Origin: a virus
Strand: one strand, 5' to 3'
IMG/VR virus record: IMGVR_UViG_3300045988_077293
DNA length: 26,793 bases
A program made the translations under genes and the position numbers. Each line of letters starts with the position of its first letter. The first letter of the stretch is position 1. The notes under the pieces are model-generated. The model saw only the letters and a list, made by a program, of their open reading frames with translations, was not told the DNA's origin and did no database searches. Positions 3,368-26,793 of the stretch are shown one piece after another.

Positions 3368-3988
3368 TTAACGCTTCGTGCTCTTTTCTATAAATTCGTT
3401 TATGGTCGTTATCGCCTGTTTAATGCGTTCTCCGTTTTCTTCGTACACATCATTTATATCTTCGCGGGCGGTTTTGTAAACCTCTTTCAGCGTTTTTCCC
3501 TTGTGTTTGCCAACAAGCACGACTGTTTGAAGTGCCATTGCATTATCCATTTCCGCACCCTTTTTCGCCTTTTCAGCCGCTCTTTCGTCTTCCGGCAAGT
3601 CTTCGCCCGCATAAATATAAAGTCCCAAACCGTGACGAGCAACCGCCTTTGTAAGGCTTCGCTGAATGGATTTATTAACATCAAACGACGTAATCTCTTC
3701 GAGCGGGATTGAATTGTTCCGATAATCCATAATCGGGAGATACTCGATATGTTCAAGCTTCATTTCGCCGTCAACCACCGTTACCCCCGTTTTAACGTAC
3801 CCTGTTTTGCCGTCCGTAAAATAGTTGAGTCCCCGCACGTCCTCATAAATTGTGTAGTATGAGAGCGGATATCTCTTTTTTAATTCCTGCCAAGCCCACG
3901 CCCAGGAAAGGTAAGAAAGCTTGTTTTTTTGTTCGATGTGTTCGCTGACGTTGACGTTGTTCAACTCATTAAAATAATTCTTTTCCAT
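3368..3988 (-). CDS. Single-strand annealing protein, Sak3-like (DUF1071, Rad52-like superfamily)
   Basis: KLSYLSWAWAWQELKKRYP ... LPIMDYRNNSI ... FDVNKSIQRSLTKAVARHGLGLYIYAGEDLPE matches my memory of the lactococcal phage p2 Sak3/DUF1071 pattern. The gene is adjacent to ssb. Confidence 0.75.
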   Translation of the reverse strand: MEKNYFNELNNVNVSEHIEQKNKLSYLSWAWAWQELKKRYPLSYYTIYEDVRGLNYFTDGKTGYVKTGVTVVDGEMKLEHIEYLPIMDYRNNSIPLEEITSFDVNKSIQRSLTKAVARHGLGLYIYAGEDLPEDERAAEKAKKGAEMDNAMALQTVVLVGKHKGKTLKEVYKTAREDINDVYEENGERIKQAITTINEFIEKSTKR

Positions 3989-4773: not shown

Positions 4774-4802
4774 ATTTTATCACATTGTAACAAGTTTGTC
4801 AA
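4774..4802 (-). promoter_or_regulatory. Sigma-A type promoter P2 (TTGACA-17 nt-TAAAAT, TGTGA extended -10)
   Basis: The minus strand reads TTGACAAACTTGTTACAATGTGATAAAAT, nearly identical to P1 including the upstream TTTTTCAAAAACC tract. It lies immediately downstream of terminator 4843-4870. Confidence 0.75.
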
Positions 4803-4870: not shown

Positions 4871-5192
4871 ATCTTTTCAATTGTCGCTTCATACAGATTT
4901 TTGTTGAGTGAGGATTCTGATTCTGACTTTCTGTGCCATAGGAAACGTTACCTCTACTTACTATATTTATTCCATCGCTGTCCTGTTGACATTCGATTTT
5001 GACATTTTTTTCTATTACGTCAAATTGTTTTTCGTATATTACCCAAGCAAGATTTGATGCAATAAGAGCGAATATCAAAATCAAAATAACTACCCACAGC
5101 CGCGTGTTTATTCTTTCGAGTCTTGTTACTGTCGCTTCGTGTACGACATAGGGAATTGACGTTTTCTCGTTGCAACCGTCGCAAGATTTCAT
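4869..5192 (-). CDS. Single-pass membrane protein of the lysis cassette (N-terminal CxxC, central TM)
   Basis: CDGC, then IPYVVHEATVTRLERINTRLWVVILILIFALIASNLAWVIY. This motif recurs in Firmicutes phage lysis regions in my memory. I do not assert a family name. Confidence 0.5.
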   Translation of the reverse strand: MKSCDGCNEKTSIPYVVHEATVTRLERINTRLWVVILILIFALIASNLAWVIYEKQFDVIEKNVKIECQQDSDGINIVSRGNVSYGTESQNQNPHSTKICMKRQLKR

Positions 5193-5193
5193 A

Positions 5194-5406
5194 TTAACCT
5201 CCTATAAGAAGCTTTAACACCGCACCTAAAACGGCGGTTGCTGTAATGCTTAAAATGGCAAGCAAAAATGACATTTTAGCGTTTATTGCAGATAAAAGCA
5301 CGTCCTGTTGCCTATTCGCTTCTTCAATTGCGGCACGGTATTCGTCGCAGTTCGTCTGTTTTACATATCTTTCATCGAGCTGTTCGATTTCTTCTTTCGT
5401 GAGCAT
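5194..5406 (-). CDS. XhlA-like membrane protein (N-terminal coiled coil, C-terminal TM)
   Basis: 70 aa with a C-terminal FLLAILSITATAVLGAVLKLLIGG. The architecture resembles B. subtilis XhlA. Confidence 0.5.
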   Translation of the reverse strand: MLTKEEIEQLDERYVKQTNCDEYRAAIEEANRQQDVLLSAINAKMSFLLAILSITATAVLGAVLKLLIGG

Positions 5407-5699
5407 TACTTATCCTTTCCGAGCTGCTTCGGTATCTGATTGATACCTACTGCGGAAAGTCCGCTTGCAAGCCCTGTTATGATTGCTCCGTACCAAGTAG
5501 GAGACGGGAGAACATCGGGGCGCACAAAGTAAGTTGCAATCCCCAGCACGCCGCCAATCGCCGCCGCAATTATGGGAATATACTTCTTCAAATATTCTCT
5601 GTCGTTGAGCCACAAGAGCTTAAGACACTCTATAATAGCATATACAGCGGCAGAAATTATTCCAATTGTGATAATAGAATAGCCGTAAATTTCAACCAT
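5406..5699 (-). CDS. Putative holin, three TM segments (Hol118/phiLC3-like architecture)
   Basis: Three TM segments: YSIITIGIISAAVYAIIECL, YIPIIAAAIGGVLGIATYFV and WYGAIITGLASGLSAVGI. The C-terminus is charged (KQLGKDK). Confidence 0.6.
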   Translation of the reverse strand: MVEIYGYSIITIGIISAAVYAIIECLKLLWLNDREYLKKYIPIIAAAIGGVLGIATYFVRPDVLPSPTWYGAIITGLASGLSAVGINQIPKQLGKDK

Positions 5700-5729
5700 A
5701 AAAAAACCGCCTTTCTTTATTCTGTCTCA

Positions 5730-5759
5730 ATTATACCATATTTTGTGTGATTTCGTCAA
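5730..5759 (-). promoter_or_regulatory. Sigma-A type promoter P3 (TTGACG-18 nt-TATAAT with TGG extended -10)
   Basis: The minus strand reads TTGACGAAATCACACAAAATATGGTATAAT, upstream of the holin gene. Confidence 0.6.
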
Positions 5760-5761
5760 GA

Positions 5762-6046
5762 TTATTTGTATATTAAGTAAATAATAAATTGCGTTATTGT
5801 CCAAACCGTCAATATTGCGTACAGTCCGAAAACTGCCCACCCCGCAATTCGCGTGAATTTTACATCCCTGTACCAATATAAGACAAAAAATGCCATTCCC
5901 GCGACAACGACTTTAACGAACCAATCGCAATTGTGGTCTATTGCCCACTTCATCAAAGGGTTTAATTCCACAAATCCCTTGCTGATGAAAAAACGTGTAA
6001 GCAATAAATCAATAATGTTTAGTAAATAAGCAATTAAAATGTGCAT
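5762..6046 (-). CDS. DUF5658-like multi-pass membrane protein
   Basis: LLNIIDLLLTRFFISKGFVELNPLMKW fits the N..D...T....G..E.NP signature. Three to four TM segments. Confidence 0.5.
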   Translation of the reverse strand: MHILIAYLLNIIDLLLTRFFISKGFVELNPLMKWAIDHNCDWFVKVVVAGMAFFVLYWYRDVKFTRIAGWAVFGLYAILTVWTITQFIIYLIYK

Positions 6047-6103
6047 ATATACTCCTCATTCGACGATGTAGTATTTTACGTCTTCATAGTCAAAGAATTT
6101 CCA

Positions 6104-8083
6104 TTATCTTTTTAGCGTGAAGAAACGTTTTACACTATCACGCATTTCATCTGAATATTCCATTTCCGAAAGTCTAATCTTTTCAAACTCGTCATCCGTT
6201 AAGAAGTCAAACTGTTCACGTTTGCAAGTGTTGATATGCTTAACCGTCTTATCATATTTCATCTCATCTGTTATCGGATAAAGCATATTTGAATAACGCT
6301 TCGATGTAAGTATGCCGTTTGCAAAGCAGTTGAAATGATATGCTGTGATAATGTTGTAATACTTCACGCTTTCGTGAATTTCTTCACACTTACATTCAGG
6401 AATGTCCTGCGGATATTCAAACAAATGCGTTCTCTTGTTGTAAAGTCTATGAGACTTGCCGTTAGAGCCTACAAGGTTTACTGTCTTGCCGTCCTCGTCT
6501 GTAACGTGCCAATAAGAGTCGCTTGTCTGTTCTTTCTTGATAAAGACAGGCTTTGCATAGTCAAGCTTGCCTTCGTCAAAGTTCCATACAAGAATATCAT
6601 CATCATAGGTAATATCTTGTACAAACTTGTCGCCACACTTTGTTGATATGAGAGTGTTTTCAGCGAAACAAAGGTAAGTATGATATGTTACAAAATTAGC
6701 ATCATCGGTGGCGGTAAAGCTATTGAGGTCGCTCGTTGTTGCCGCATTGTCGCCCTCGAGCGCGATATATTTCGAATATGATAGTGATGAACCTGAAGCT
6801 AAGTCATATAAATTGGCTCTGAAAACTATAGTAGAGGCATTGCTTGCAGCATAATTGACACCTAAGCGTAAATCACCGTAATCAACAAGACTACAGTCCC
6901 ACCGAGAATTAGTAGCATCATAGTATAACTCCGCACTACCCGTTTGCTCCAAATCCTTTATCGTATATATTTTACTTGTTTTGGCGGCGCCTATAGCAGA
7001 ATATGTATCATTGAGTATCTTTATAAGCTGTATTTGCTTGAACGCCGAAGTTGCAAACACCGTCACAATAAAATCTGTATTACCTTCGGTTACAGGTATT
7101 GTCATTGCAGTATCTACTGATATTGCGGAGGTAATATCAAAAGGACTAAGCGATGGGTTTTCCATATCGGGATAACTGCCATCATTATTAAGCAATGCCA
7201 TTGAGACTGTCCCATTCGGCACATAGTAAATCTTGAAGAATTTTACGTTATTATATTCTTCAAGACTGCCAAGGTTGTCTAAGTCAATCCAGTTGCCTTC
7301 GCCGTTTATCTGTATAAAGACGTGTTCGGATATGGTCTCGTCATATGCAATATTGGCAAACGTAATGTAATAACCCTGCGACTCTACCTTTGTAAACGTT
7401 ATGGGCGCGGAAATATCGCTGTCATCGTATGTGCCGTCTTGTGAATACGCCTGCGCCGTTATGCTGTATGTTTTAGCAGTCGGAAAGCAAGAGTCGTTCA
7501 TCGTCACCGTGTAAATGCCGCCCGCAAGCTCCGCCGTCCATTTCGTGCCGTATCCTTGCTCCGTGCCGTCAACAAATACCTTGTAAGCGTATGCCCTCGT
7601 ATCGTTCGGGAACGAGAATTTGCAAACGCCGTCCGCCGATAGGTCGGTGAGAACGGGCGTTGTAAGCTTTTGTTTTGCCACAGCTCCCGCCGTAACAGAA
7701 ATATAAACCGCACCCGTGACGTTTTCAATCTGCACAATGCCGATTTCTCTGCCGTCAGAACCTGTGCCATAGCTCCAAGCGGTAGAAGTGATATCTTGCA
7801 ACGTTCCTGTTCCGTCATCCATTATAACGAGGATTGTTCCCGTCGCAAACGTGTAATTTGCGTAATCTCCGCCGTGCGTGAGGAAAGAAGCCGTTAGGCT
7901 CTTTCCAATAGACACAGCCGTGGGAGCATTTGTCGAGCAGTTCAACACCGCAGTGTGTACCGCTACTCGTGAATATGAAATGACATTAGAAAATGCGCTT
8001 ACGAGCGTTCCGTCCGTTGCTTTTGCACGGAGGATATGATTTCCCGCTCCGAGATTTGTAAGATTATATGTCGCGATTTTCAT
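6104..8083 (-). CDS. Tail fibre / receptor-binding protein with a C-terminal Hint (intein-like) module
   Basis: 659 aa, positioned after the distal tail genes. It contains Ig/FN3-like segments (TTPVLTDLSADG...YKVFVDGTEQG). The C-terminal 188 aa carry Hint blocks A, B and F/G. Confidence 0.75.
   Translation of the reverse strand: MKIATYNLTNLGAGNHILRAKATDGTLVSAFSNVISYSRVAVHTAVLNCSTNAPTAVSIGKSLTASFLTHGGDYANYTFATGTILVIMDDGTGTLQDITSTAWSYGTGSDGREIGIVQIENVTGAVYISVTAGAVAKQKLTTPVLTDLSADGVCKFSFPNDTRAYAYKVFVDGTEQGYGTKWTAELAGGIYTVTMNDSCFPTAKTYSITAQAYSQDGTYDDSDISAPITFTKVESQGYYITFANIAYDETISEHVFIQINGEGNWIDLDNLGSLEEYNNVKFFKIYYVPNGTVSMALLNNDGSYPDMENPSLSPFDITSAISVDTAMTIPVTEGNTDFIVTVFATSAFKQIQLIKILNDTYSAIGAAKTSKIYTIKDLEQTGSAELYYDATNSRWDCSLVDYGDLRLGVNYAASNASTIVFRANLYDLASGSSLSYSKYIALEGDNAATTSDLNSFTATDDANFVTYHTYLCFAENTLISTKCGDKFVQDITYDDDILVWNFDEGKLDYAKPVFIKKEQTSDSYWHVTDEDGKTVNLVGSNGKSHRLYNKRTHLFEYPQDIPECKCEEIHESVKYYNIITAYHFNCFANGILTSKRYSNMLYPITDEMKYDKTVKHINTCKREQFDFLTDDEFEKIRLSEMEYSDEMRDSVKRFFTLKR
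6302..6670 (-). other. Hint/intein-like domain within the tail fibre (codons 472-594)
   Basis: Block A is CFAENTLISTKCGDKFVQDITYDDDILVW, with Cys-1 codon TGT at 6670-6668. Block B-like is GSNGKSHRLYN. Blocks F/G are YYNIITAYHFNCFANGILTS. There is no terminal His-Asn. Confidence 0.7.
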
Positions 8084-10078: not shown

Positions 10079-10449
10079 TTTGGCTCCTTTGCCAAGAAAG
10101 ACACGGTGCAATTGCCCCATATGTTTCTTGTTCCCGATATTTTTTTGAGTTCGTCCGCAACCATTGTAACATAAGCTGTGTAAGTCATCGTAGTTTGATT
10201 ATACGGGACTGTCACTGTGTGAAATTCCGTTGCCGAAGCTAAAACCTCGTGAAGTGCCGTATATTCGCTTTCATATCCTCTAAGAGCGGAAAACTGCATT
10301 TCATACTGATAATACACGCCCATTATATCACGGTGATATTTGCCGTCAAGCATAAATCCCGTGAGGGAAGTGTCTTTTATTTCCGCCGTCCGTCTTATGG
10401 GCGTATGCACAAAGACGTGCGGATATGTTGTTCCGTCAACTTTTATCAC
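10075..10449 (-). CDS. Small tail component directly after the tape measure (Dit position)
   Basis: 124 aa, with ATGA-type coupling on both sides. The call is positional only. Confidence 0.45.
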   Translation of the reverse strand: MIKVDGTTYPHVFVHTPIRRTAEIKDTSLTGFMLDGKYHRDIMGVYYQYEMQFSALRGYESEYTALHEVLASATEFHTVTVPYNQTTMTYTAYVTMVADELKKISGTRNIWGNCTVSFLAKEPK

Positions 10450-14001: not shown

Positions 14002-14417
14002 AACTTCCTCCAAACGTTAAGGCGCGACGCGAACACATTCTGCCACGAGCTATCGGGCTTTCCTGCGGCGTTTGTCGCCTTTGTATATGAATATCCACCC
14101 CAACTTTCCGACGCGTAAGGAGAAATAGCCGCCGCGTCGGATTTGGAGTAGTCATCAATCTCGGTGTTGAGGGCGAGAAAAGAGGGAGGAATTTTCATCG
14201 CCCACACCGAGCCATTAAACACCTCGTCGATTAAATCCGACTGAGGATACTGATGAACACCGTCATTGAACGTACTTCCGACAATTCGGAAATATTGTCC
14301 GTCCTGTAAAAAGTCAAGCGGCGTAATAGTGCCGTCCTTGACCGTGAATGTGCCGACGTGCTTATCTTCGTCCGAAGTAAACCAATTTCGGCACTCTCTG
14401 CAAAGTTCAGTAAGCAT
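13998..14417 (-). CDS. Virion protein of the head-tail connector region (family not recognised)
   Basis: 139 aa, directly after the major capsid gene. Confidence 0.45.
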   Translation of the reverse strand: MLTELCRECRNWFTSDEDKHVGTFTVKDGTITPLDFLQDGQYFRIVGSTFNDGVHQYPQSDLIDEVFNGSVWAMKIPPSFLALNTEIDDYSKSDAAAISPYASESWGGYSYTKATNAAGKPDSSWQNVFASRLNVWRKL

Positions 14418-14437
14418 TTTACGCCGCCTTTCTTAAT

Positions 14438-15295
14438 TTAGAATGTGCATTTAAGACCTGCAAGTCTCTTTGCGTCAACGACCTTTGCGCCGTAAAGGTG
14501 AAGTCCCTTAACAGCGTCAGCAAATCTCTTTTCGGGTCTGTAAGCTTCGGTGCTTGTAATCTGCTCTGCATATGTGCAAGCGCCTTCGTCGCCCGCCGTG
14601 ATTGTATATGTTGTGGTGTTCGAGGAAGTTGCGCTGTTGCAGTTGTTCGACATATAGATGTCAAAGCCTGCCGCTCTTGCAACCCAACCATTGCGGAGGG
14701 TTTCTTCTGCCATTGCGCCGCCTGTCTTTACGAAACGGTCGTCCTGAAGAATGAGCGCAACCATTTCAGGCGGGATTACAAGCCAACGACCCGTTGTGGG
14801 AACGTTTGCTTTGTCAAGGACTGTTTTCATCTTGACAACGTTTTCATAAACGTTATCTTTTGTGAGCGCAACAGCCGTTGTGCCGACCTGATTGCCGTTT
14901 GCCGTTGTAATAGCTGCCGCGAGCTGGTCGGCAAGATATTTGTCCGCAACGTCATTGAGTCCATAAGCGGCTCTCTGCATTGCTTTGTCCATAACGTCGC
15001 CTGCTGCCTGTGCTGTGTCGATATCGTCAACAGCAAAATTGAAGTATTTTGCCTGATCAATAACGAGCGTCTGGTCGGTTGTGGTAAGTGCCTGAGGACC
15101 CGATGTAAAGTCTGTGTCCTTTGTGTATGTGCCGATTGTTACCGCGCCAATCGTATTTATATGCACGGTATCGCCCTGCTTCTTGATATCGCCTTCGTAA
15201 TCTCTGTTTACGAGTCCTGCGAAAACGTGAGCCTTGTCAAGAGCGTTGAGAAGTCTCGCGTTCCAAAGTTCGGGAATGAATGATGTAAGTGCCAT
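14438..15295 (-). CDS. Major capsid protein (HK97 fold, P22-coat-like family)
   Basis: FIPELWNARLLNALDKAHVFAGLVNRDYEGDIKKQGDTVHINT fits the N-terminal signature. 285 aa, follows the scaffold gene, strong SD. Confidence 0.85.
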   Translation of the reverse strand: MALTSFIPELWNARLLNALDKAHVFAGLVNRDYEGDIKKQGDTVHINTIGAVTIGTYTKDTDFTSGPQALTTTDQTLVIDQAKYFNFAVDDIDTAQAAGDVMDKAMQRAAYGLNDVADKYLADQLAAAITTANGNQVGTTAVALTKDNVYENVVKMKTVLDKANVPTTGRWLVIPPEMVALILQDDRFVKTGGAMAEETLRNGWVARAAGFDIYMSNNCNSATSSNTTTYTITAGDEGACTYAEQITSTEAYRPEKRFADAVKGLHLYGAKVVDAKRLAGLKCTF

Positions 15296-15315
15296 AATAA
15301 TAATATCTCCTTTGA

Positions 15316-15918
15316 TTAAAGATTTTTAAGCGACTGCTGTATATCGTCCCAATTCTTGTTTATTTCGTCGGGGGACATCTTTTCGATATCTTCGCGCGTA
15401 TATGCTTTTTTCTGCACCTGCGCGGGCGGAGTCGCAGTCTTTGCTCCGCGTGTCTGCTCGGTCACGATAAAGTCAGCCCATTCCGATTTAATCGAGTCCG
15501 TCAGTGCGTCGCCGTCCTTGATTTTGCCGTCCTCGTCAAGCTCTATGCCGTCAACGTTTGATACTTTGAGTATGCTGTCTATCCGCTTTTCCGAAACGCC
15601 GCACGCCTTTAACACATCGCGATAAGCCGCTAACTTTGCGCCGTGTGTTTCCTTTGCGGATATTTCAGCTTTATATTTTTCAAAGTCCTCTTTGACTGCG
15701 TCATACTTGACCTTGTAGCTGTCTTTTCCGTTCGCTTCGATTGTTTTGTTAGCTTCGCCGAGTTCCTTTTCTACCTCCGCCAACTTATCAGCGTCCGCTT
15801 TATATACGGTTATCTGCTCTTTGAGAGCATCAACAGTTTCTGCGTGCGCTTCGATTATGGTATCAATCTGTTCATCGCTGATACCCATTCCTTTGAGCAA
15901 TTTTCTTGTAAGTCCCAT
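15316..15918 (-). CDS. Scaffolding protein (GP20-type)
   Basis: ORF 15316-16170 trimmed to the ATG at 15918 (MGLTRKLLKGMGISDEQIDTIIEAHAETVDALKEQ), which has a GAAGGAGAG SD. The protein is coiled-coil rich. Promoter P4 lies inside the longer ORF version. Confidence 0.8.
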   Translation of the reverse strand: MGLTRKLLKGMGISDEQIDTIIEAHAETVDALKEQITVYKADADKLAEVEKELGEANKTIEANGKDSYKVKYDAVKEDFEKYKAEISAKETHGAKLAAYRDVLKACGVSEKRIDSILKVSNVDGIELDEDGKIKDGDALTDSIKSEWADFIVTEQTRGAKTATPPAQVQKKAYTREDIEKMSPDEINKNWDDIQQSLKNL

Positions 15919-15984
15919 TCGCTGCTCTCCTTCGTCGCGTATTCTTTCGCGTTCGCGTTTGCCGATTTCTCGGCTTCTGATTGC

Positions 15985-16013
15985 ATTATAGCACAAAGTG
16001 CATAAATTGTCAA
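15985..16013 (-). promoter_or_regulatory. Sigma-A type promoter P4 (TTGACA-17 nt-TATAAT, TGC extended -10) in front of the scaffold and capsid genes
   Basis: The minus strand reads TTGACAATTTATGCACTTTGTGCTATAAT. A GCCGA-GAAA-TCGGC stem-loop at 15974-15961 would lie at the 5' end of the transcript. Confidence 0.7.
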
Positions 16014-16048
16014 TACAATTTCTAACTAATGTAAATTTAACTTTGCAT

Positions 16049-16167
16049 TTAATTCTTTTCGGACTCCAAAGCCGCTTCAAGTATTGCTTTGTATTCGTCC
16101 GAATGCCGTGTTGCCGCGTGCAAAAGCATATGATGTGCTTTTTGTCGGCTCGTTCCGTTTTCAACAT
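16049..16167 (-). CDS. HK97 gp10-like (Mu G-like) head-tail protein, proposed exon 2
   Basis: Reading (U)AU GUU GAA AAC GGA ACG gives (Y)VENGTSRQKAHHMLLHAATRHSDEYKAILEAALESEKN, with a TAA stop at 16051-16049. This supplies the missing family C-terminus. Confidence 0.65.
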
Positions 16168-16418
16168 CATTTTGTTATCGCAAAGCTTTTTATCTTTGCT
16201 TCTTGTAGTTGCTAACTACAAGTTCGGCGTACATTATCGCATTTCTGCGCCAAGCACTCTTGGGGGCTTTATTGCTTCCATAACGCTCAGCCCCTACGCT
16301 CTACAATGTCAGCGGTCTGCTGATTATCTCGGTGTTGCCCATTGATAAACAATTCCACGTTAGTGTCAAGCAGGTTTTCACCGATTTTGCTCGGTTTACC
16401 CTCCGCATATTAAAGTTT
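16168..16418 (-). ncRNA. Putative ORF-less group I self-splicing intron (251 nt)
   Basis: The 5' exon ends in U. P1 pairs exon CUCCGU with intron GCGGAG and places a U.G wobble at the splice site. P10 pairs intron AUAU (extendable to UUUAAUAU) with exon 2 AUGU(UGAAA). The intron ends in G. It is dense in hairpins, including a GAAA tetraloop. Confidence 0.65.
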
Positions 16419-19153: not shown

Positions 19154-20416
19154 TCACCCCTTAAGTATAGATTGATAATCGCCGTTCTTCTTCCAAAGTC
19201 TGCGGATTTGGCACGACAAGCTGTCGGGCGCGTCGTCGTGTTCCGCGTTTTCGTTGTAGTTGCAAACTTGCTCTATATATTCTTTGTCGGTATCCTCAAC
19301 AAAGTATATATTCTTCCATTCGGCTTTCAGATAGGACGTTATTTTGAGATATTTATTCATATTCTCGTGATAAATAACTACACGTTCGCCCCTGCGCCGT
19401 AATTCCTTACCTAGATATCCTTTGTCTCCGTTGTCCTCAACGAATATCTTCCCCGCATTAAACCGAGCGTGTAACGCTTGTATTTCGTCGAGACAATCGT
19501 CGACGTGTTTGTTCCATAGCTTGCCGAGTACATAATAAACATCGCCGTCTTTCCTGACAAGCGTGTATGCCGTAAGGTCGCTCCCTCCATATGCCGCGTC
19601 TATATGTCCGTCGCCTTGTTCCACAAGATATGAACCTGCGCCCGTGTGCGGATTTGAGAATATAACAGCCTCCGCCGCAATATGCCGCAACTCGTAGTTG
19701 CACGCAAACAGAGAAGCCGTCATACTTTCCTTGACTTCGGCAACGTCCTCTTCTGTCATCAGTCCCGTTGAGTAGCAGTCCCACTTTTCGGGAGAGGGCA
19801 TAATTGAAAAGCAGTCATCGGCGTGCCACGGCGTTCCCGTGTTGAAAATCCGCCCGCCCCTGTTCTTGATGTTCTGCAACTCCTGATATACAGTTTTTGT
19901 CCGCTCTCGCTCCGCCTTTGATATTCGGTCGTTGACGTTGACAATATCGTCTGTAAAAATCCTGTCAAAGTGCTTTCCCGTCAGAGAGCCGCCGCAACCC
20001 GCTCCGATAAGCTGTGCCGTTCCTCTTATGTCTATTGACAGGTTTGTCGTCAGCTCCGTCGCATTTTCAGTCGCAAGCCTTAAATTAACGCCATAAATAC
20101 ACTGCACAAAATACAGTGTGTGCGGGTCTTGCAGGATTTTTGACGTCTGCTTGATAATCTCTTTAACGTCGTTGTCGGTCTTTCGCATAAACATTGTGCG
20201 CTTGTTCGGGAGAAGAATAATAATTATTGCCAAAGCCAACGACACGCACGTTGTCTTATAAGAGCCTCTGTGCGCCTGCAGCGTCTTATCATCCTTGCCG
20301 ACAATCATATCCCTTATCCATTTGTTGTGAAGCTCCGTCAGCTTCGTAAACCCGAGCATATGCCCCAGTTTATACGGAGACGTTAAAAGAAAATTGACCG
20401 CCTGTTCGCGCGTCAT
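19154..20416 (-). CDS. terL: Terminase large subunit
   Basis: Trimmed to the ATG at 20416, an ATGA overlap with the upstream stop (MTREQAVNFLL). Walker A-like HRGSYKTT, Walker B RIFTDD, and GTPWH. The nuclease half has IDAAYGGSDLTA, VEDNGDKG and HDDAPDS. Confidence 0.95.
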   Translation of the reverse strand: MTREQAVNFLLTSPYKLGHMLGFTKLTELHNKWIRDMIVGKDDKTLQAHRGSYKTTCVSLALAIIIILLPNKRTMFMRKTDNDVKEIIKQTSKILQDPHTLYFVQCIYGVNLRLATENATELTTNLSIDIRGTAQLIGAGCGGSLTGKHFDRIFTDDIVNVNDRISKAERERTKTVYQELQNIKNRGGRIFNTGTPWHADDCFSIMPSPEKWDCYSTGLMTEEDVAEVKESMTASLFACNYELRHIAAEAVIFSNPHTGAGSYLVEQGDGHIDAAYGGSDLTAYTLVRKDGDVYYVLGKLWNKHVDDCLDEIQALHARFNAGKIFVEDNGDKGYLGKELRRRGERVVIYHENMNKYLKITSYLKAEWKNIYFVEDTDKEYIEQVCNYNENAEHDDAPDSLSCQIRRLWKKNGDYQSILKG

Positions 20417-21480
20417 ACATAATACACCGCCTTTAACCTTGACGGCAACCATTCAAACATCATAAACCGCTTATGCGCTCCAATGTAGCCTTCGCTGTTG
20501 CCCCAAGCATCGTCAGGTTTCGCCGTGCTTGTGCGCCTTATCATAACCCCGTATAAGTCGCTCTCGCTCTCACAGTGCAAATGCCCTGCGTGTATCTCGC
20601 GCACGTCGCTGTCTGCAAACTCTGTCGGAAAGCGTATTGTAAACTGCCCCCGAAGGTCTCTCGGCTCTCTTTTCGCGCCTTCGCCGTGTGTCACGCCAAT
20701 GAAACATCTACGCCAATGTATGCACTTTCTGTCTCGGAACGTGTCATCAAAATGCGCCTGAGGAAAAGCCACTTGCAACGCCTTGAATAGACACCACGAG
20801 GAGCATTCATCGTGATTTCCCTTTGAGTAAATAACATTTACCTTTTGCGAGTGTTCTAAACAAGCGGGGATGACGTTCTGCCAAAAGTTCCACGCGTCTT
20901 CCCATGCGTTCCGGAAGTCCGCCGCTTCAATACTCGTTCCCTTTGCCGTATGACCGCGCATATCGTTCGTGTGGAGCATATCTTGACCGAATATGATATT
21001 TATCTCGTCATATGCTTTCGCTTCGATAATGCCCTTTATTTCGCGCGTCTGCTGTGTGTAGTCTTCAAGGCTTGCAATTCCGAAGTGCATATCGAAGAGC
21101 GGGATTTCAAGCATTGTGTCGCCGCCTATTTCGCAAGCGTCTATTTTGAGCGGCTGAACGTTTTCTCGGATAAAGTCCTTTATGTCGTCCCAATTGACGT
21201 CCTCTGCTTTTTGCTTAATCCACGCTTGTGTTATTTCTCCGTTTCCGTTCACTTGCACCGTTGCGCCGTGAGCTGTAAATCCTCCGTATGTTCCACTCTC
21301 CAAGGTTACGCCGTCCGCCATTTGCTTATTACGCCAATATCGAAGCTTCCTCGCAAACGTCGAAAACGACATACTGTCCCCGTGTTCGGGGGCAAATATG
21401 CCGTTATAAATTTCTCTTGCGGTTTTTCCAGTGTATGACTCTTTAACGCATCGCACTTTAAGGTCGTAGGGTATAATCAT
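20413..21480 (-). CDS. Calcineurin-like metallophosphoesterase with an N-terminal HTH-like domain, inside the packaging module
   Basis: Motifs in order: LFDMHFG (DxH), FGQDMLH, SKGNHDE (GNHD/E), GVTHGE and HAGHLHCE (GHxH). The N-terminus VKESYTGKTAREIYNGIF is HTH-like. The gene is translationally coupled to terL. Confidence 0.75.
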   Translation of the reverse strand: MIIPYDLKVRCVKESYTGKTAREIYNGIFAPEHGDSMSFSTFARKLRYWRNKQMADGVTLESGTYGGFTAHGATVQVNGNGEITQAWIKQKAEDVNWDDIKDFIRENVQPLKIDACEIGGDTMLEIPLFDMHFGIASLEDYTQQTREIKGIIEAKAYDEINIIFGQDMLHTNDMRGHTAKGTSIEAADFRNAWEDAWNFWQNVIPACLEHSQKVNVIYSKGNHDECSSWCLFKALQVAFPQAHFDDTFRDRKCIHWRRCFIGVTHGEGAKREPRDLRGQFTIRFPTEFADSDVREIHAGHLHCESESDLYGVMIRRTSTAKPDDAWGNSEGYIGAHKRFMMFEWLPSRLKAVYYV

Positions 21481-21562: not shown

Positions 21563-21922
21563 TCAATGTTGCTCATCGTTTACCATCCTTTCAACATCAT
21601 CAATAACAGACTGCTCGACTTCTGCAACCATTACTTTTTCAACAGGCTTTTCGCCCGCCGTATCTCGGAGGACTTCAAACGCCTTTACATCGCCTTTCAT
21701 CGCCTTTTTCATCAGCGTGACAGCCAACGCCTCGCTTCCTGTAAGCGTTTTTCCTTCCGACGTGTACTCTTTTGCAAGCAGTTCATCGATGCATTCACGC
21801 AGTAATTTCTTGCGCTTCCTGCTTTCAGCAGAAGCCTTTCCTCCTGCTTTTTGGTCGTCAAGCGTTAATTTGTGTTCATTCGGAATTTTGCTACGCTCTT
21901 CTGCCAAACCTTTCACCCCCAA
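21563..21922 (-). CDS. Candidate small terminase / DNA-binding protein (positional call)
   Basis: ~115 aa with a basic N-terminus (GGKASAESRKRKKLL), then MKKAMKGDVKAFEVLRDTAGEKP. The start is ambiguous: TTG 21922, GTG 21916 or TTG 21907. Confidence 0.35.
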   Translation of the reverse strand: MGVKGLAEERSKIPNEHKLTLDDQKAGGKASAESRKRKKLLRECIDELLAKEYTSEGKTLTGSEALAVTLMKKAMKGDVKAFEVLRDTAGEKPVEKVMVAEVEQSVIDDVERMVNDEQH

Positions 21923-22468
21923 TCAATTTGCGAAATCAAAAATAGACACTTGTCTGTTTTGCAACGCCTCCTGTTCTTCTCTGAAAAAATCTTCTTTTGT
22001 TTTTCCGGCTCTTTTCCCTTTAAGAGTGTGGCAATCGAAAACGTATTGTGGAATTTCCATTTTTTCTTTTCTTACTTCCTCAAACTCTTGTTCAATCATA
22101 TCATCGGTCAGACCTTTATAAGCGTCATATACATAATTGCTCAATAAGTCTGCGTCTCTGTTGTGTTTTGCCAAGCAAAGAAGAATTACAGCCTTTGAGA
22201 TGAAAACCCTGCCTTTCAATTCATCGGCTTTTTTCCCTTTGTTGATGACGTGGAACGCTTCATAAAGAGACATAATCTCCTTTGTTATCACGCCGTAACA
22301 ATCTTCGGCTGAGATTGTCAGCAACCTCTTCCAACAATATTCCGAATACTTCGGAAAAAGTTCCAACGCCATATAGCCCGCAAGTTTAACGTCGCCTCGT
22401 CTGATTGATTTTTGCAAAGCACTTGCAACCTCATAAAAATCATACCCTCTTTGTGTGAAAAGTTTCAT
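21923..22468 (-). CDS. Stand-alone RarA/MgsA C-terminal-domain-like protein (no AAA+ module)
   Basis: FYEVASALQKSIRRGDVKLAGYMALELF...WKRLLTISAEDCYGV...ISKAVILLCLAKHNRDA...IPQYVFDCHTLKGKRAGKT parallels the HYD.ISA..KS.RGSD...A.YWL..M / SEDIG / KSNA / VP.HLR pattern of MgsA_C. Confidence 0.55.
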   Translation of the reverse strand: MKLFTQRGYDFYEVASALQKSIRRGDVKLAGYMALELFPKYSEYCWKRLLTISAEDCYGVITKEIMSLYEAFHVINKGKKADELKGRVFISKAVILLCLAKHNRDADLLSNYVYDAYKGLTDDMIEQEFEEVRKEKMEIPQYVFDCHTLKGKRAGKTKEDFFREEQEALQNRQVSIFDFAN

Positions 22469-22504
22469 ATAATTATTCCTCCTTCGAGCTTCTGCTCTAT
22501 GTTA

Positions 22505-22533
22505 ATTATATCACATTGTTTCACTTTCGTCAA
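22505..22533 (-). promoter_or_regulatory. Sigma-A type promoter P5 (TTGACG-17 nt-TATAAT, TGTGA extended -10)
   Basis: The minus strand reads TTGACGAAAGTGAAACAATGTGATATAAT with AAATTTTTCAAAAAACTC upstream. Confidence 0.75.
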
Positions 22534-22549
22534 GAGTTTTTTGAAAAAT

Positions 22550-23284
22550 TTATTTTCTTTTTTTATCGTTGTTATAACGAATTATACCGTTCATAAAATC
22601 ATTACCTTGAATTGCGGCGCAAACTGTATCCTTGTTCAAACAGTGGCTGTCCCAGTACGGCTTTTCTTCATATACGAAAGTGTGGGAAGAGCCGCAACGC
22701 TCATCGAGAATAAATCCCTCTCTAACACTTTCATAAGAACAGTTATATTTTTTACACATTTCATAAAAGGAATTACAGAACGAAACTTTTGTCGCAAGGA
22801 AACAGTTTTCCATCAGTTTAACCATTTCAGCTTCCGACGATTTCATTTTCAAAAATCTGTGTCTGCCGTCGTACACTTTTTGCAAAAGCTGTATAACTTT
22901 GTCGCAAGTCTTTTCACACCCCCCTAAAATCGTAAAATCAAACTTGAAATTGTTGCAATGCTGTGTTCCTCCGTAATACTCGGGAGAAAAAAAAATATTT
23001 TCTTTCCCGAGCGAATTAACAAAGCCTATCGGGACTGTGGATTTTACAACATAAATTTCGCAATCGTTTTCGTTTATTGCATTAACAACTTCGCTTGTGT
23101 CAAACAATTCTTTTTCCTTGTCATAAGGCGTGTCTACACAAACAAATCCGAACTTGTATTTTTCCTTTTTCTTTGTCGTTTTTTCCTTTTTGTATTTGTC
23201 AACAACATCGGGAGTTAATACTGAAAGCTCTTTTAACAGATTGTTTCCGACAACTCCGCAGCCGATTATTAAAACATCACTCAT
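22550..23284 (-). CDS. UDP-glucose/GDP-mannose dehydrogenase-family protein lacking the C-terminal nucleotide-sugar-binding domain
   Basis: IIGCGVVG (GxGxxG), FVCVDTP, VVKSTVPIG, FSPEYYGG, SEAEMVKLMENCFLATKVSFCNSF, and the catalytic-Cys region WDSHCLNKD. The protein ends about 30 aa later, at 244 aa. Confidence 0.7.
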   Translation of the reverse strand: MSDVLIIGCGVVGNNLLKELSVLTPDVVDKYKKEKTTKKKEKYKFGFVCVDTPYDKEKELFDTSEVVNAINENDCEIYVVKSTVPIGFVNSLGKENIFFSPEYYGGTQHCNNFKFDFTILGGCEKTCDKVIQLLQKVYDGRHRFLKMKSSEAEMVKLMENCFLATKVSFCNSFYEMCKKYNCSYESVREGFILDERCGSSHTFVYEEKPYWDSHCLNKDTVCAAIQGNDFMNGIIRYNNDKKRK

Positions 23285-24026
23285 ACTTTAACCTCTGCTT
23301 TCTCTGAATATTTGTTCTTATGCGAATTTGATTTTTATGAGTTCCGACTACCAAATATTTTCCCCATTTTTTTTGCAAACTGTCCAAACTCTTTTCAAAA
23401 TCTTTTGCCGTTCGGAACTCGCTATTGCCTCCGACATTATCGTCCCTGCTCTGGGAGAAAAAATAACGGTTATCTTGCCAAATAATCCTATCGGTCAGCA
23501 GGCATTTCATACAAAAATCAATATCAACTTTATACTTATCGTTTCTAAATCTGTGTTCACGACCTATAACGCCGATAACACAGCCGAGCCAACCACATAA
23601 CGAAAAAGGTTCTGCGCCGTTGAACTTCCGAATATCAGTTTGGTTAAACCCAAAAACTTTTGCGCCTGCGTCGTCAGCCATTACTGCGGCATTGACAATA
23701 ACGTCAAGAACTTCGTCTTTATCTTCAACACGTTCGCTTTTAACTCCCGTCAGACGATATACATATTTTATATCGTCGTCAATCATAATAACGATGCGTT
23801 CTTTGAAATGGTCTAAAACCCAATTCCGAACTTCTCCTAAACCTTTGATTTCGTCGGGAATAGTAATAATAGGATTTTTAACGGCTTTTTCGTAATCGCT
23901 TTTCTGCGTTTCGGGAACAAGAATTTCAATGAAGCTTGGCAACAGCTCGTTTGTAGTGATACTGTTAAACCTCGAACGGCTCAGTATCAAAATTTTCACG
24001 TCCAAGCGCTTCAATAAGTCTTTCAC
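23277..24026 (-). CDS. Putative GT-A-like glycosyl/nucleotidyl transferase (DxD-type IMIDDDI)
   Basis: Alternating beta-alpha pattern: KILILSRSRFNSITTNELLP, ILVPETQKSDYEKA, GLGEVRNWVLDHF and IVIMIDDDIKYVY. GTG start with a GGGAGGG SD. The start overlaps the ParB-like gene by 62 nt. The fold assignment is by eye only. Confidence 0.45.
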   Translation of the reverse strand: MKDLLKRLDVKILILSRSRFNSITTNELLPSFIEILVPETQKSDYEKAVKNPIITIPDEIKGLGEVRNWVLDHFKERIVIMIDDDIKYVYRLTGVKSERVEDKDEVLDVIVNAAVMADDAGAKVFGFNQTDIRKFNGAEPFSLCGWLGCVIGVIGREHRFRNDKYKVDIDFCMKCLLTDRIIWQDNRYFFSQSRDDNVGGNSEFRTAKDFEKSLDSLQKKWGKYLVVGTHKNQIRIRTNIQRKQRLKYE

Positions 24027-24567
24027 CTTTTATAACCCTCCCAAGTCCGACTTTTCTCTTTTCCCAACCTGCGTCTATTCTTTTCAGTCCAAACTTATTA
24101 ACTATATTTAGCCAATCCTGCGTGTTGTCGAAAACAAAAACAACATAATCGTGATGCTCAAACTGTTTCAACTCCATTTTTTCCAGCTCTTTGTTATGTT
24201 TATTTTCGTTTTCTTTTTCTTTATCACTTTCGAGTTCGTCAAAGCCAAAATCAAAACAGCTTAAATCAATATCTTCCAACTCGTCCAGCAAAGCTTCACA
24301 ATCCCACTCGCTTTCGTTGCTTTTGTTGTCAACAATTCGCAAAGCCTTTACTTGTTCTTCCGTGAGGTCATCGACGCATACGCACGGAACATCTTTCATG
24401 CCGAGAGCCTTTGCCGCTTCATACCTACAATGCCCAATAACAATAACTCCGTCTTTGTCAACGACAATCGGCTGAACAAATCCGTATTGCCTTATACTTT
24501 CAGCAACGTTGTTTATTTGTGTTTTGTCGTGCTTCTTCGCGTTTTTTCTTATACGGGGCAATCTCAT
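23965..24567 (-). CDS. ParB-like nuclease domain protein (as shown in the ORF track). The true start is probably ATG 24592, with a +1 frameshift at the A6 run 24547-24542.
   Basis: NAKKHDKTQINNVAESIRQYGFVQPIVVDKDGVIVIGHCRYEAAKALGMKDVPCVCVDDLTEEQVKALRIVDNK is a ParBc signature. The missing N-terminal strand MKVENRKLDEIAPYKK is encoded upstream in another frame, behind a strong AGGAGG SD. Confidence 0.85.
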   Translation of the reverse strand: MRLPRIRKNAKKHDKTQINNVAESIRQYGFVQPIVVDKDGVIVIGHCRYEAAKALGMKDVPCVCVDDLTEEQVKALRIVDNKSNESEWDCEALLDELEDIDLSCFDFGFDELESDKEKENENKHNKELEKMELKQFEHHDYVVFVFDNTQDWLNIVNKFGLKRIDAGWEKRKVGLGRVIKGERLIEALGRENFDTEPFEV

Positions 24568-24610
24568 CTAATTTCCTGTTTTCTACTTTCATAATATCCT
24601 CCTTTTTATA

Positions 24611-24639
24611 ATTATATCACATATGTCACAATTTGTCAA
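24611..24639 (-). promoter_or_regulatory. Sigma-A type promoter P6 (TTGACA-17 nt-TATAAT, TGTGA extended -10)
   Basis: The minus strand reads TTGACAAATTGTGACATATGTGATATAAT, upstream of the ParB-like gene. Confidence 0.75.
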
Positions 24640-24651
24640 GGTTTCGCGGCC

Positions 24652-25029
24652 TTAAACCTCTTTTATTGTAATTCCGTACTTGTAAAGCATTAGTTTTTTC
24701 TTTATTTTGTAAACTTCGGTTTTCATTCCTTTCGCGTCCTCTATGACCTGTTTTCCGCCTTCACAATAGGCGAAGTCGCAAACGTAATAGCAAGGACGTT
24801 CAACCACCTTTCCGTCTATTCTCTGCGACGGTATAAGCTCAAAACGCTTCTGCAATTCGAGATTGGATATCTCACCCGCTTTTTCAAGCATTTTTAACTC
24901 CGAATACCTCTGTGCTTCCCTTTTGCTTGCGAAAACGTGTCCGTCTATGGTCTGCTTCCTCGAATGATATTTGCTTTTCGTATTCGCGCTTGCATTTCCA
25001 AGAGCAAACCTTCTTTTTGAGAAATCCAC
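24652..25029 (-). CDS. DUF1064 family protein (phage replication/recombination-associated, putative nuclease)
   Basis: KSKYHSRKQTIDGHVFASKREAQRYSELKMLEKAGEISNLELQKRFELIP...YVCDFAY...VIEDAKGMKT fits DUF1064. GTG start with an AAAGGAG SD. Confidence 0.8.
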   Translation of the reverse strand: MDFSKRRFALGNASANTKSKYHSRKQTIDGHVFASKREAQRYSELKMLEKAGEISNLELQKRFELIPSQRIDGKVVERPCYYVCDFAYCEGGKQVIEDAKGMKTEVYKIKKKLMLYKYGITIKEV

Positions 25030-25718: not shown

Positions 25719-25880
25719 CTATAAGCATATCAACGGTTGCAGATGCAGACAAATTATTGTCGGGTAGTGGCTTTCTGCCGACCGTCCCTGTCCCTTCTTT
25801 GAGTAAGTCCGATACGCCCAAGGGGGATCGGCGTATATCACGTCGTACTTTCTGTCCGTGTTAAAAATATCAACTTTCAT
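25719..25880 (-). pseudogene. Truncated MT-A70-family N6-adenine DNA methyltransferase remnant (53 codons)
   Basis: The ATG at 25880 follows a GGGAGG SD. MKVDIFNTDRKYDVIYADPPWAYRTYSKKGQGRSAESHYPT carries the DPPW catalytic motif. The sequence then diverges and hits TAG. No downstream frame encodes the rest of the fold. Confidence 0.7.
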
Positions 25881-25893
25881 CTTTGTTGCCTCC

Positions 25894-26145
25894 CTATTCC
25901 ATTTTTGCCCCGCAATTCTCACAATACTTTGCGTCTGGATTTTTCCACGAGCCTTCTGTGTGTTTTATAAATCCACAACAAGAACAGCTCCATTCGTCAC
26001 CTCCGATATGCGCCCATTTCCCACATTTGTTCTTTTGCATTTCAACTGTCGGCTGTGCGTCTACAATTATGTCAAACAGTTCTTTGTTTTCGTCGTTCCA
26101 CCAAGCGTAGTGCTGTTTTAATTTGTCCGCGTCAATAAGTCTCAT
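25894..26145 (-). CDS. Zn-ribbon hypothetical protein (83 aa)
   Basis: GAGGAGGAAACAAG SD. MRLIDADKLK N-terminus, as in the 1148-1471 product. CGKW...CSCCG...CENCG. Confidence 0.6.
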   Translation of the reverse strand: MRLIDADKLKQHYAWWNDENKELFDIIVDAQPTVEMQKNKCGKWAHIGGDEWSCSCCGFIKHTEGSWKNPDAKYCENCGAKME

Positions 26146-26173: not shown

Positions 26174-26793
26174 TTATTTACCCTTTTTAACTTCTACAAA
26201 CTTCCATCCGCCAGCCTGATATATCGTTTTTGAATAACAATCTTTGAACGTTGCATTGTCGGATATGATGAGTGACGCTGAATTATTCCACTTGGTATAC
26301 GGAGTACTTTTGACCATGGCATTGCCGTAGATGTACTTGACCGTGGCACTATCGTAGATGTTCTCGACCGTGGCTTCGCCGTAGATGTACTTGACCGTGG
26401 CACTATCGTAGATGTTCTCGACCGTGGCATTGCCGTAGATGTACTTGACCGTGGCATTGCCGTAGATGTTCTTGACCGTGGCTTCGCCGCAGATGTTCTT
26501 GACCATGGCATTGCCGTAGATGTTCTTGACCGTGGCTTCGCCGCAGATGTTCTCGACCGTGGCATTGCCGTAGATGTACTTGACCGTGGCACTATCGTAG
26601 ATGTTCTCGACCGTGGCTTCGCCGTAGATGTACTTGACCGTGGCATTGCCGTAGATGTTCTCGACCGTGGCTTCGCCGTAGATGTACTTGACCGTGGCAT
26701 TGCCGTAGATGTTCTCGACCGTGGCTTCGCCGTAGATGTACTTGACCGTGGCACTATCGTAGATGTTCTCGACCGTGGCATTGCCGTAGATGT
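26174..26793 (-). CDS. Decapeptide-repeat protein, 3' part (repeats plus a ~45-aa C-terminal tail); continuation of 437..1
   Basis: The frame of ORF 26174-26506 stays open to the window end (…IYGNATVENIY…). The repeat consensus is G-[NE/DS]-A-T-V-[EK]-[NY]-I-Y. The tail is STPYTKWNNSASLIISDNATFKDCYSKTIYQAGGWKFVEVKKGK. Confidence 0.8.
   Translation of the reverse strand, partial: IYGNATVENIYDSATVKYIYGEATVENIYGNATVKYIYGEATVENIYGNATVKYIYGEATVENIYDSATVKYIYGNATVENICGEATVKNIYGNAMVKNICGEATVKNIYGNATVKYIYGNATVENIYDSATVKYIYGEATVENIYDSATVKYIYGNAMVKSTPYTKWNNSASLIISDNATFKDCYSKTIYQAGGWKFVEVKKGK
26305..26793. repeat. Near-perfect 30-nt (60-nt super-period) tandem repeat array, continuing at 1-88
   Basis: Units of the form GACCGTGGC[ATT/TTC/ACT][GCC/ATC]GTAGATGT[AC/TC]T[TC]. 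There are about 17-19 units in total across the junction, and many are identical over 60 nt. Confidence 0.9.

Follow-up and report, generated by a model that had tools for sequence, protein, structure and literature searches.

What would a small phage do with sugar-active enzymes encoded next to its packaging genes? We address this question for a run of co-oriented genes in IMG/VR virus record IMGVR_UViG_3300045988_077293, a stretch of 26,793 nucleotides that was analysed whole and is called the window below. A preliminary description had recognised three overlapping genes there, for a ParB-like protein, a putative glycosyltransferase and a sugar dehydrogenase, and had proposed that they form a promoter-bounded glycosyl-modification system acting either on phage DNA or on a glycan of the host wall. 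Comparison with other phages places these genes in a larger cassette (Table 1), the functional core of which consists of the ParB-like gene, the transferase gene and a fourth gene, for a protein resembling the C-terminal region of RarA (RarA-C-like), with the dehydrogenase as an accessory. A glycosyl-modification system is still the best reading, supported by the family and the fold of the transferase. To the more specific view that the cassette is a post-replicative, ParB-assisted system for the glycosylation of DNA we give about an even chance.

A widespread cassette with a three-gene core

To describe the cassette we counted genes in 115 non-redundant IMG/VR loci, with denominators of 105 loci for the ParB-like gene and 88 for the downstream genes. 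The counts rest on alignment-based scans, a scan of viral contigs with single proteins having returned one locus only. In 100 of 105 unique loci the ParB-like gene sits directly 5' of the transferase gene, and the two usually overlap. Translational coupling of the transferase to a ParB-like protein is nearly universal, and in that protein Pfam detects no helix-turn-helix (HTH) domain. Directly downstream of the transferase gene lies the RarA-C-like gene (76 of 88 loci), which is found elsewhere in the locus in a further nine; where the two are separated, the slot between them holds small open reading frames (ORFs), terminase or an AAA+ core. When loci were anchored on the RarA-C-like protein instead, all 64 with enough upstream flank carried both the ParB-like and the transferase genes.

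The dehydrogenase gene behaves differently, being present in only 16 of the 88 loci, or about one fifth of cassettes. The cassette genes do stay together in many other phages. The promoter-bounded trio is not supported as the functional unit: its most conserved partner is encoded just beyond the second promoter, and the dehydrogenase is an accessory insert.

The cassette is mobile between unrelated tailed phages. Microbacterium phage Smarties has all four genes in the same order (gp92-95), annotated as ParB-like, glycosyltransferase, UDP-glucose dehydrogenase and AAA-ATPase, and the cassette occurs in 56 records of cultured Microbacterium phages; a megablast search of cultured phages with a 5.3-kb query gave no match. 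We also found it in a Clostridia prophage (L006) and in several metagenomic phages with unrelated replication and structural modules, and a Streptococcus prophage has a ParB-like gene and a glycosyltransferase beside terminase. Hosts inferred from genome bins belong to the Bacillota, Actinomycetota, Chloroflexota and Lentisphaerota, and include an Acholeplasmataceae bin. In every locus with neighbours examined, the cassette lies just upstream of the terminase genes.

A search of the literature found no study of the cassette, its sole mention being in a gene list for the cluster EC Microbacterium phages. What is already known are the constituent families and the theme of a ParB-like protein and a DNA-modifying enzyme near terminase. 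New are the way the parts are combined, the lack of a priming enzyme, and a dehydrogenase that has no UDP-binding domain.

A predicted glycosyltransferase of the TAGT family

The transferase matches PF20691 (TAGT, TET-associated glycosyltransferase, a family reportedly defined by Iyer et al. in 2013) with 56.2 bits against a cut-off of 27.5 (expectation value, E, 5.7e-15), over profile positions 2-205 of 205, and it matches phrog_842 (E 1.8e-18). Among the matches listed, PF20691 is present in about 114 of 120 homologues. The same family includes the T2/T6 enzyme from which glucosyl-5-hydroxymethylcytosine (glucosyl-5hmC) receives its second glucose (PMC13216743, PMC13390438). Two motifs, D83-D84-D85 and S16-R17-x-R19, are invariant in 29 transferase sequences. 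The first lies within the IMIDDDI segment that had been taken for a DxD-like motif, and it bears out that suggestion. The N-terminal residues encoded within the 62-nt overlap with the ParB-like gene are also conserved.

The structure predicted with AlphaFold2 (AF2), from an alignment without the Smarties row, is confident (predicted local distance difference test, pLDDT, 90.3; predicted template modelling score, pTM, 0.89) and has GT-A matches in the PDB. Its best solved matches are TarS and TarP, with template modelling (TM) scores of about 0.45-0.5 and E of about 1e-6 to 1e-4. Against predicted viral structures (BFVD), Foldseek gave TM 0.71-0.81 to viral TAGT proteins (E 1e-13 to 5e-17), including TM 0.78 (E 1.4e-13) to a protein of Klebsiella phage PKO111 annotated as a beta-glucosyl-HMC-alpha-glucosyltransferase. 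Generic GT2 enzymes and GtrB scored TM 0.55 or below, and the glycosyltransferase of Mycobacterium phage Che8 scored TM 0.46 (E 5e-5). The profile match and the model uphold the earlier suspicion that this protein is a GT-A glycosyltransferase, and place it, by prediction, in a family whose characterised members add sugars to hydroxymethylated pyrimidines of DNA.

A short dehydrogenase that is not a truncated one

The dehydrogenase had been described as a truncated member of the UDP-glucose/GDP-mannose dehydrogenase family. Its membership is supported: it matches the central domain of UDP-glucose dehydrogenase (UGDH; PF00984, E 5.3e-15) and the nucleotide-sugar dehydrogenase model TIGR03026 (E 1.1e-24), and it aligns to solved UGDH structures over approximately residues 65-272 with the catalytic cysteine in register. 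The N-terminal NAD-binding domain is matched weakly (PF03721, 20.1 bits, below the cut-off of 27), with about 30 Rossmann residues missing. The C-terminal UDP-sugar-binding domain (PF03720) is absent, as had been noticed, and the chain ends about 25 residues past the catalytic cysteine.

To call the protein truncated is nevertheless misleading, as around 250 residues is the usual length in a large and catalytically conserved family. An exhaustive search returned 3,598 relatives, and 106 of the best 150 cluster representatives (clusters at 50% identity) are 235-300 residues long. Across these 106 short representatives GxGxxG, D29, S82-T83, P101-E102, K156, N160, C215, K218 and D219 are conserved at 95-100%, all but D29 at 97% or more and the last five at 98-100%. 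Given that so many representatives are equally short and retain the catalytic residues, we conclude that the short dehydrogenase is not decayed. The possibility that it is a disguised dioxygenase was also considered and rejected, as it is a Rossmann-type NAD enzyme.

Fusions offer a clue to its working partners. A protein of 565 residues (P0362) joins a GT2 domain to a short dehydrogenase that is 58% identical to that of the window, and another of 491 residues (P0367) carries the short dehydrogenase behind an N-terminal domain of another, unrelated kind that bears an EDD motif. These are two independent fusions to predicted GT-A-type domains. Other fusion partners are an NAD epimerase/dehydratase (P0501), an APS kinase (P0492) and a methyltransferase (P0455). 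The lack of a UDP-binding domain, the translational coupling and the fusions to transferase domains together suggest that the dehydrogenase works with the transferase or on the sugar that has been transferred.

A RarA-C-like partner

The fourth gene lay outside the coordinates of the preliminary description. Its product belongs to phrog_16866 (E 4e-55) and to no Pfam family. A series of weak but convergent comparisons points to RarA/MgsA: an NCBIfam RarA match (E 2.8e-4), weak matches to five structures of MgsA C-terminal domains (8g28, 2r9g, 2qw6, 3bge and 3pvs; E 0.06-0.5), a profile comparison with 2r9g (E 0.0085), an hhalign alignment to residues 248-345 of Escherichia coli RarA (probability 40%, E 2.9e-4), and a tblastn search with RarA that finds the gene at E 2.9e-5 with the alignment confined to RarA residues 248-363. 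Homology to the helical region past the AAA+ core of RarA/MgsA is only moderately supported. No AAA+ core of RarA was found in the protein or anywhere in the window. The alignment to a helical C-terminal region also led us to reject the idea that this protein is a disguised dioxygenase.

The RarA-C-like protein is the best-conserved member of the cassette, with 50-73% identity where the transferase has 33-38%. Its relatives of about 180 residues number more than 1,100, with many invariant charged positions, and its gene stays linked to the cassette despite changes of position or orientation.

In some related phages a RarA-like AAA+ core of about 210-240 residues has a gene of its own. In L026 the core gene (5140-5775) lies directly upstream of the RarA-C-like gene (5772-6407) and overlaps it, which amounts to a split RarA; in L119, L123, L138, L056 and others, the core is found about 4-5 kb downstream of the cassette.

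The ParB-like protein and its frameshift

That the first gene encodes a ParB-type domain is confirmed by matches to PF02195 (ParB_N, E 8.4e-11) and phrog_620 (E 1.9e-43). Its structure was modelled (AF2) on the 98%-identical protein P0241 rather than on the window copy. The first 95 residues or so are confident and superimpose at 1.6 Å over 93 columns on ParB bound to CTP-gamma-S (7bnr); N17, S32, G37, G53 and R56 are invariant in the alignment. By eye, the residue aligned to the catalytic glutamate of the ParB GERR box is a histidine here (GH[T/C]R). The relatives in alignment A4 share a C-terminal block (FEHHDYVVFVFDN...GxGRV), the C-terminal 90 residues of the model have pLDDT below 60, and Foldseek matched the N-terminal domain only. 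Weak Pfam hints that the C-terminal part is nucleoside deoxyribosyltransferase-like or DUF6293_C were rejected for want of other support.

In related sequences such as P0279 (PADLOC MTase_II match), an N6/N4 DNA methylase carries a fused nucleotide-binding domain about 90% identical to that of the window protein. This fusion suggests that the domain serves as an accessory for DNA modification.

The three minus-strand ORFs of the preliminary description were correctly placed, with overlaps of 62 and 8 nt. The 200-residue ORF at 23965-24567 falls short of the whole ParB-like gene, whose true start is the ATG at 24592-24590, behind an AGGAGG ribosome-binding site. Alignment shows that the window has an extra A in an A6 tract at 24542-24547 that shifts the frame; relatives L088 and L089 carry A5 and an intact gene. 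The shift costs the protein its first 16 residues and, with them, the opening strand of the nucleotide-binding domain. In relatives at 84-98% identity the protein is intact and has 208 residues. Among the close relatives, L091 has an intact gene, L092 has one additional A in this tract and a broken gene, and L090 has a gene broken by a different 1-nt deletion near it; in L092 the transferase is broken as well. The tract may be a hotspot at which slippage recurs, may serve as an on/off switch, or may be an artefact of assembly.

Is the window copy then an inactive remnant, whatever the substrate of the cassette elsewhere? We regard this as unlikely. The lost residues and the lesions in L090 and L092 speak for it. 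Counter to this, the window has unbroken ORFs for the transferase, the dehydrogenase and the RarA-C-like protein, which share 93-97% identity with their counterparts in relatives whose ParB-like gene is intact, and a 200-residue product starting at the ATG at 24567 can keep all conserved motifs from N17 on. Moreover, the difference is a single homopolymer base, so an assembly error or reversible slippage is possible.

What does the cassette modify?

Between the two targets proposed at the outset, the evidence mostly favours DNA over the wall glycan, given the much closer structural match of the transferase to TAGT proteins (TM 0.7-0.8) than to TarS and TarP, and its coupling to a ParB-like protein. 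DNA glycosylation by the cassette might proceed as follows. The ParB-like protein would load or hold the transferase on double-stranded phage DNA, by analogy with the activators of thymine dioxygenases, and the transferase would move a hexose from a host UDP-sugar to that DNA. Where present, the dehydrogenase would oxidise the hexose at C6 to a uronic acid, its substrate being either a UDP-sugar held by the transferase or a sugar already on the DNA. More speculatively, the RarA-C-like protein may couple this machinery to replicating or single-stranded DNA, as the biology of RarA and the reported work of T4 alpha-glucosyltransferase with the replisome might lead one to expect. The pay-off would be phage DNA shielded from restriction and similar nucleases. 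The constant site beside terminase fits an older idea, that ParB proteins direct modification around packaging.

Several points weigh against DNA as the target. To our knowledge, every known case of glycosylation in phage DNA concerns a base that was hydroxymethylated beforehand or, in one group, hydroxylated. Pfam and PHROG searches of the ORFs examined revealed no gene of the TET/JBP, thymidylate-synthase-like or C5-methyltransferase kind in the genome of the window, which appears to be complete, and no such enzyme was found in prophage L006, in L002, in L088-L092 or in Smarties. None occurs among the 30 most recurrent clusters of neighbouring genes. In all of these searches highly divergent dioxygenases could escape Pfam; in a Pfam census of 148 neighbour clusters, which covers the best 25 of 70 families, a dioxygenase of a single locus could be hidden. 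Consequently, the only acceptor chemistry proven for the TAGT family is without a visible source here. In the relevant passages of Pyle et al. (10.1101/2023.12.21.572611), orphan transferases appear as less obviously DNA-directed, and the approximately 65% of phage contigs that contain a glycosyltransferase (GT) and have no neighbouring base-modification enzyme are left unexplained. Having no detectable priming enzyme, the cassette falls in this group. In addition, the ParB-like gene is frameshifted in the window, with ParB or transferase lesions in two of five close relatives (L090 and L092), and the role given above to the RarA-C-like protein is a guess.

A bolder version of DNA glycosylation would have the transferase, the ParB clamp and the RarA-C-like partner act on DNA that contains no hydroxymethyl pyrimidines. 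Candidate acceptors would be DNA termini, canonical bases and bases with host-type methylation. In cassettes with the dehydrogenase, oxidation of the hexose in place or at the transferase would leave a uronic acid on DNA. We consider this unlikely; no description of uronic acid on DNA was found in the literature searched.

Alternatively, the transferase may glycosylate a protein, with the dehydrogenase tailoring the sugar. The target could be a virion protein (as for the capsid or tail of mycobacteriophages), one of the DNA-binding partners in the cassette or a host factor. GT-A enzymes are able to glycosylate proteins, the BFVD search lists the glycosyltransferase of Che8, the cassette adjoins packaging and structural genes, and the genome has no detectable source of hydroxymethyl pyrimidines. 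We nonetheless find a protein target improbable. The Che8 match is weak beside the TAGT matches, whose E values reach 5e-17, and the structural genes of cassette-bearing phages are wholly different from one another. A virion substrate would also leave unexplained the strict linkage to a ParB nucleotide-binding domain of the kind that is fused to a methylase.

Remodelling of an envelope glycopolymer of the host (teichoic acid, teichuronic acid or capsule) by the transferase and dehydrogenase, for superinfection exclusion or for serotype conversion in the manner of TarP, has a poor chance of being correct. TarS and TarP are the best fold matches in the PDB, UDP-glucose dehydrogenases do feed the synthesis of teichuronic acid and capsule (an NCBIfam match to TuaD was obtained), and several carriers of the cassette are prophages. 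The match to TarP, however, does not discriminate between envelope and DNA, because Pyle et al. (10.1101/2023.12.21.572611) report TarP as the top PDB hit of proven phage DNA GT-A enzymes too. Further, the cassette is carried by lytic Microbacterium phages without integrase and repressor genes, its hosts have very different envelopes (Actinomycetota, Bacillota, Chloroflexota, Lentisphaerota and the Acholeplasmataceae bin), its ParB-like and RarA-like partners are DNA-associated proteins, and no membrane segment was seen by eye.

That the enzymes act on small molecules (for example nucleotides, including those of immune signalling, or metabolites) and not on a polymer is very improbable: ParB-fold proteins do include small-molecule kinases such as SerK, and sulfiredoxin, and the short dehydrogenase family has fusions to APS kinase, methyltransferase and epimerase domains, but we found no characterised TAGT member that acts on small molecules, the constant terminase-adjacent site and the RarA-C-like partner point to DNA, and nothing matched known defence or anti-defence models (PADLOC made no defence-system assignment for the cassette).

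Returning to DNA glycosylation, the cassette matters as a concrete, tightly linked and widespread example, with defined partners, of the unexplained group of phage glycosyltransferases. The small genomes that carry it, of which one is apparently complete and one belongs to a fully sequenced cultured phage, leave little room for a hidden priming pathway. If DNA is indeed modified, this would point to a new acceptor chemistry, to a priming enzyme of a new kind, or to acidic sugars on DNA. The cultured Microbacterium phages make the question directly testable.

Genome setting and promoters

The minus strand holds essentially all genes of the window, the order of which was assigned from Pfam and PHROG scans of the window ORFs (Table 1). 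Bases 1-55 are identical to bases 26739-26793. This exact repeat at the two ends indicates that the window is probably a complete, circular assembly, a conclusion made somewhat less certain by the location of the break within a 27-nt tandem array. The cassette does not lie in the early region, as had been thought; it sits at the junction of the replication/recombination genes and the terminase/packaging genes.

Table 1. Features of the window and of the cassette, ordered from the high-coordinate end
Feature	Coordinates	Strand	Remarks
27-nt tandem array, at least 20 copies	26310-26793 and 1-80, spanning the contig ends		Predicted 9-residue YdcK-type beta-solenoid repeats on the minus strand; PF18836, E 1.4e-12
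67-residue ORF	25719-25922		DPPW motif (typical of MT-A70-type adenine methylases), then breaks off
Small genes	Spanning the contig end, between the replication genes and DUF1064
DUF1064, resolvase-like	24652-25029	-
Promoter upstream of the cassette	24611-24639	-	TTGACA-17-TATAAT, TG extension, 12/12 consensus
Cassette	21923-24592	-
ParB-like gene	23965-24592	-	Nucleotide-binding domain, acidic linker, small conserved C-terminal domain; frameshifted in the window
Predicted TAGT-family GT-A glycosyltransferase, 249 residues	23277-24026	-	GTG start, GGGAGG site; PF20691, phrog_842
Short NAD-dependent sugar 6-dehydrogenase, UGDH-like, 244 residues	22550-23284	-	Optional cassette member
Internal promoter	22505-22533	-	Between the dehydrogenase and RarA-C-like genes; 11/12 consensus, TG extension
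RarA/MgsA C-terminal-domain-like protein, 181 residues	21923-22468	-	Fourth cassette gene
DUF5681	21563-21922	-
Metallophosphoesterase-like protein, 355 residues	20413-21480	-	phrog_704 'DNA repair exonuclease'; GNHD-type motif by eye
Large terminase	19154-20452	-
Portal, head, tail and lysis genes	Below 19150	-
Sak, SSB, replisome organiser (replication/recombination)	3368-3988, 2843-3253, 1468-2226	-
Co-oriented extended -10 promoters	921-949, 2804-2832, 4774-4802, 15985-16013, 22505-22533, 24611-24639		TGTGATATAAT-like -10 regions

The two promoters that had been described as bounding the trio are real, each with a TG extension and a near-perfect or perfect match to consensus, and a related promoter-like sequence occupies the same place as the upstream one in the alignment with L088 and L089. 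They belong to a set of six co-oriented TTGAC-N15-TGNTATAAT sites in the window, compared to 0.06 expected by chance; a possible seventh, with a 16-nt spacer, lies at 10322-10349. No convincing terminator was found on the minus strand between the cassette and the downstream genes, or upstream of the internal promoter. The two promoters mark transcription starts and not functional limits.

A 67-residue ORF upstream of the cassette had been read as a decayed adenine methylase. A DPPW motif is visible by eye, but the ORF has no Pfam hit and no detectable role. We rejected it as a part of the system, since the cassettes of other phages lack such a remnant.

Other genes near the cassette are worth recording. 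The gene for the 355-residue metallophosphoesterase-like protein overlaps the start of the large terminase gene by 40 nt, is kept in the closest relatives, and elsewhere lies outside the cassette. In relatives at 86% identity the RarA-C-like gene is separated from terminase by inserted genes for a radical-SAM protein and an N6/N4 DNA methylase (L091, 6970-9244), and a dGTP-diphosphohydrolase-like N-terminal domain (PF18909) lies upstream in L090-L092 (1-302). These insertions suggest that the cassette region is a hotspot for genes of DNA and nucleotide modification. In a high-GC clade, a putative amidoligase gene (PF12224, E 9.3e-11; L029, 8829-10016, representing 49 loci) occurs about 1.5-2.5 kb downstream of the cassette, and in the Clostridia prophage L006 the portal is fused to a NUDIX hydrolase domain (14292-16214; PF06381 and PF00293). 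An epimerase/dehydratase gene in L149 was considered as an alternative sugar-tailoring gene; at about 4 kb away it is too far off to count.

Comparison with known systems

Each protein of the cassette has better-known counterparts. The short dehydrogenase shares with Ugd, TuaD and HasB the NAD-binding GxGxxG and the catalytic Thr, Glu, Lys, Asn, Cys and Asp; it differs in having neither the UDP-binding domain nor some 30 Rossmann residues, which is the norm for its family of proteins of about 250-290 residues. The 181-residue protein aligns to the helical part of RarA/MgsA/WRNIP1 that follows the AAA+ core (248-363 in E. coli RarA), whereas neither this protein nor the genome of the window supplies the ATPase core.

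The transferase resembles TarP, which is prophage-encoded, and TarS in its predicted GT-A fold. Those chains are longer, at 305-558 residues compared to 249, their TM scores are modest, and the context of the cassette is related to DNA rather than to the envelope. Closer in family is the beta-glucosyl-HMC-alpha-glucosyltransferase of T2/T6, which also belongs to PF20691; tblastn with the cassette transferase matches T4-like Salmonella phages. Sequence identity to the T2/T6 enzyme is about 16-26%, and the T-even enzymes extend a glucose on 5hmC that is made at the nucleotide level by dCMP hydroxymethylase, a pathway that the 27-kb phage lacks.

As whole systems, the nearest relatives may be the clusters of C5-methyltransferase, 5mYOX (TET-like) and GT genes described in passages of Burke 2021 (PMC8256090) and Pyle 2023. 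These resemble the cassette in the GT-A enzyme with TarP as its best PDB neighbour and a DDD motif, in the frequency of ParB and terminase genes as neighbours, and in the sugar-tailoring enzymes encoded beside the transferase. The cassette differs in having no methyltransferase or dioxygenase, so no 5hmC or 5-hydroxymethyluracil (5hmU) acceptor is visible. RarA-C-like partners and dehydrogenases without a UDP-binding domain are not mentioned in those passages.

For the ParB-like protein, the closest parallel is with the ParB-dependent thymine dioxygenases (O'Toole 2026, PMC13229309). In these phage systems a ParB protein is required for dioxygenase activity on double-stranded DNA and is modelled as clamping the enzyme on DNA (PMC13229309). 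It is likewise short, with a nucleotide-binding domain and a C-terminal domain, and its gene is likewise directly beside that of the DNA-modifying enzyme; it has no HTH, and Pfam detects none in the cassette protein. The partner is an Fe/2OG dioxygenase there and a glycosyltransferase in the cassette. If DNA glycosylation is the correct reading, the cassette would widen a role only recently described for ParB-like proteins, that of activating DNA-modifying enzymes.

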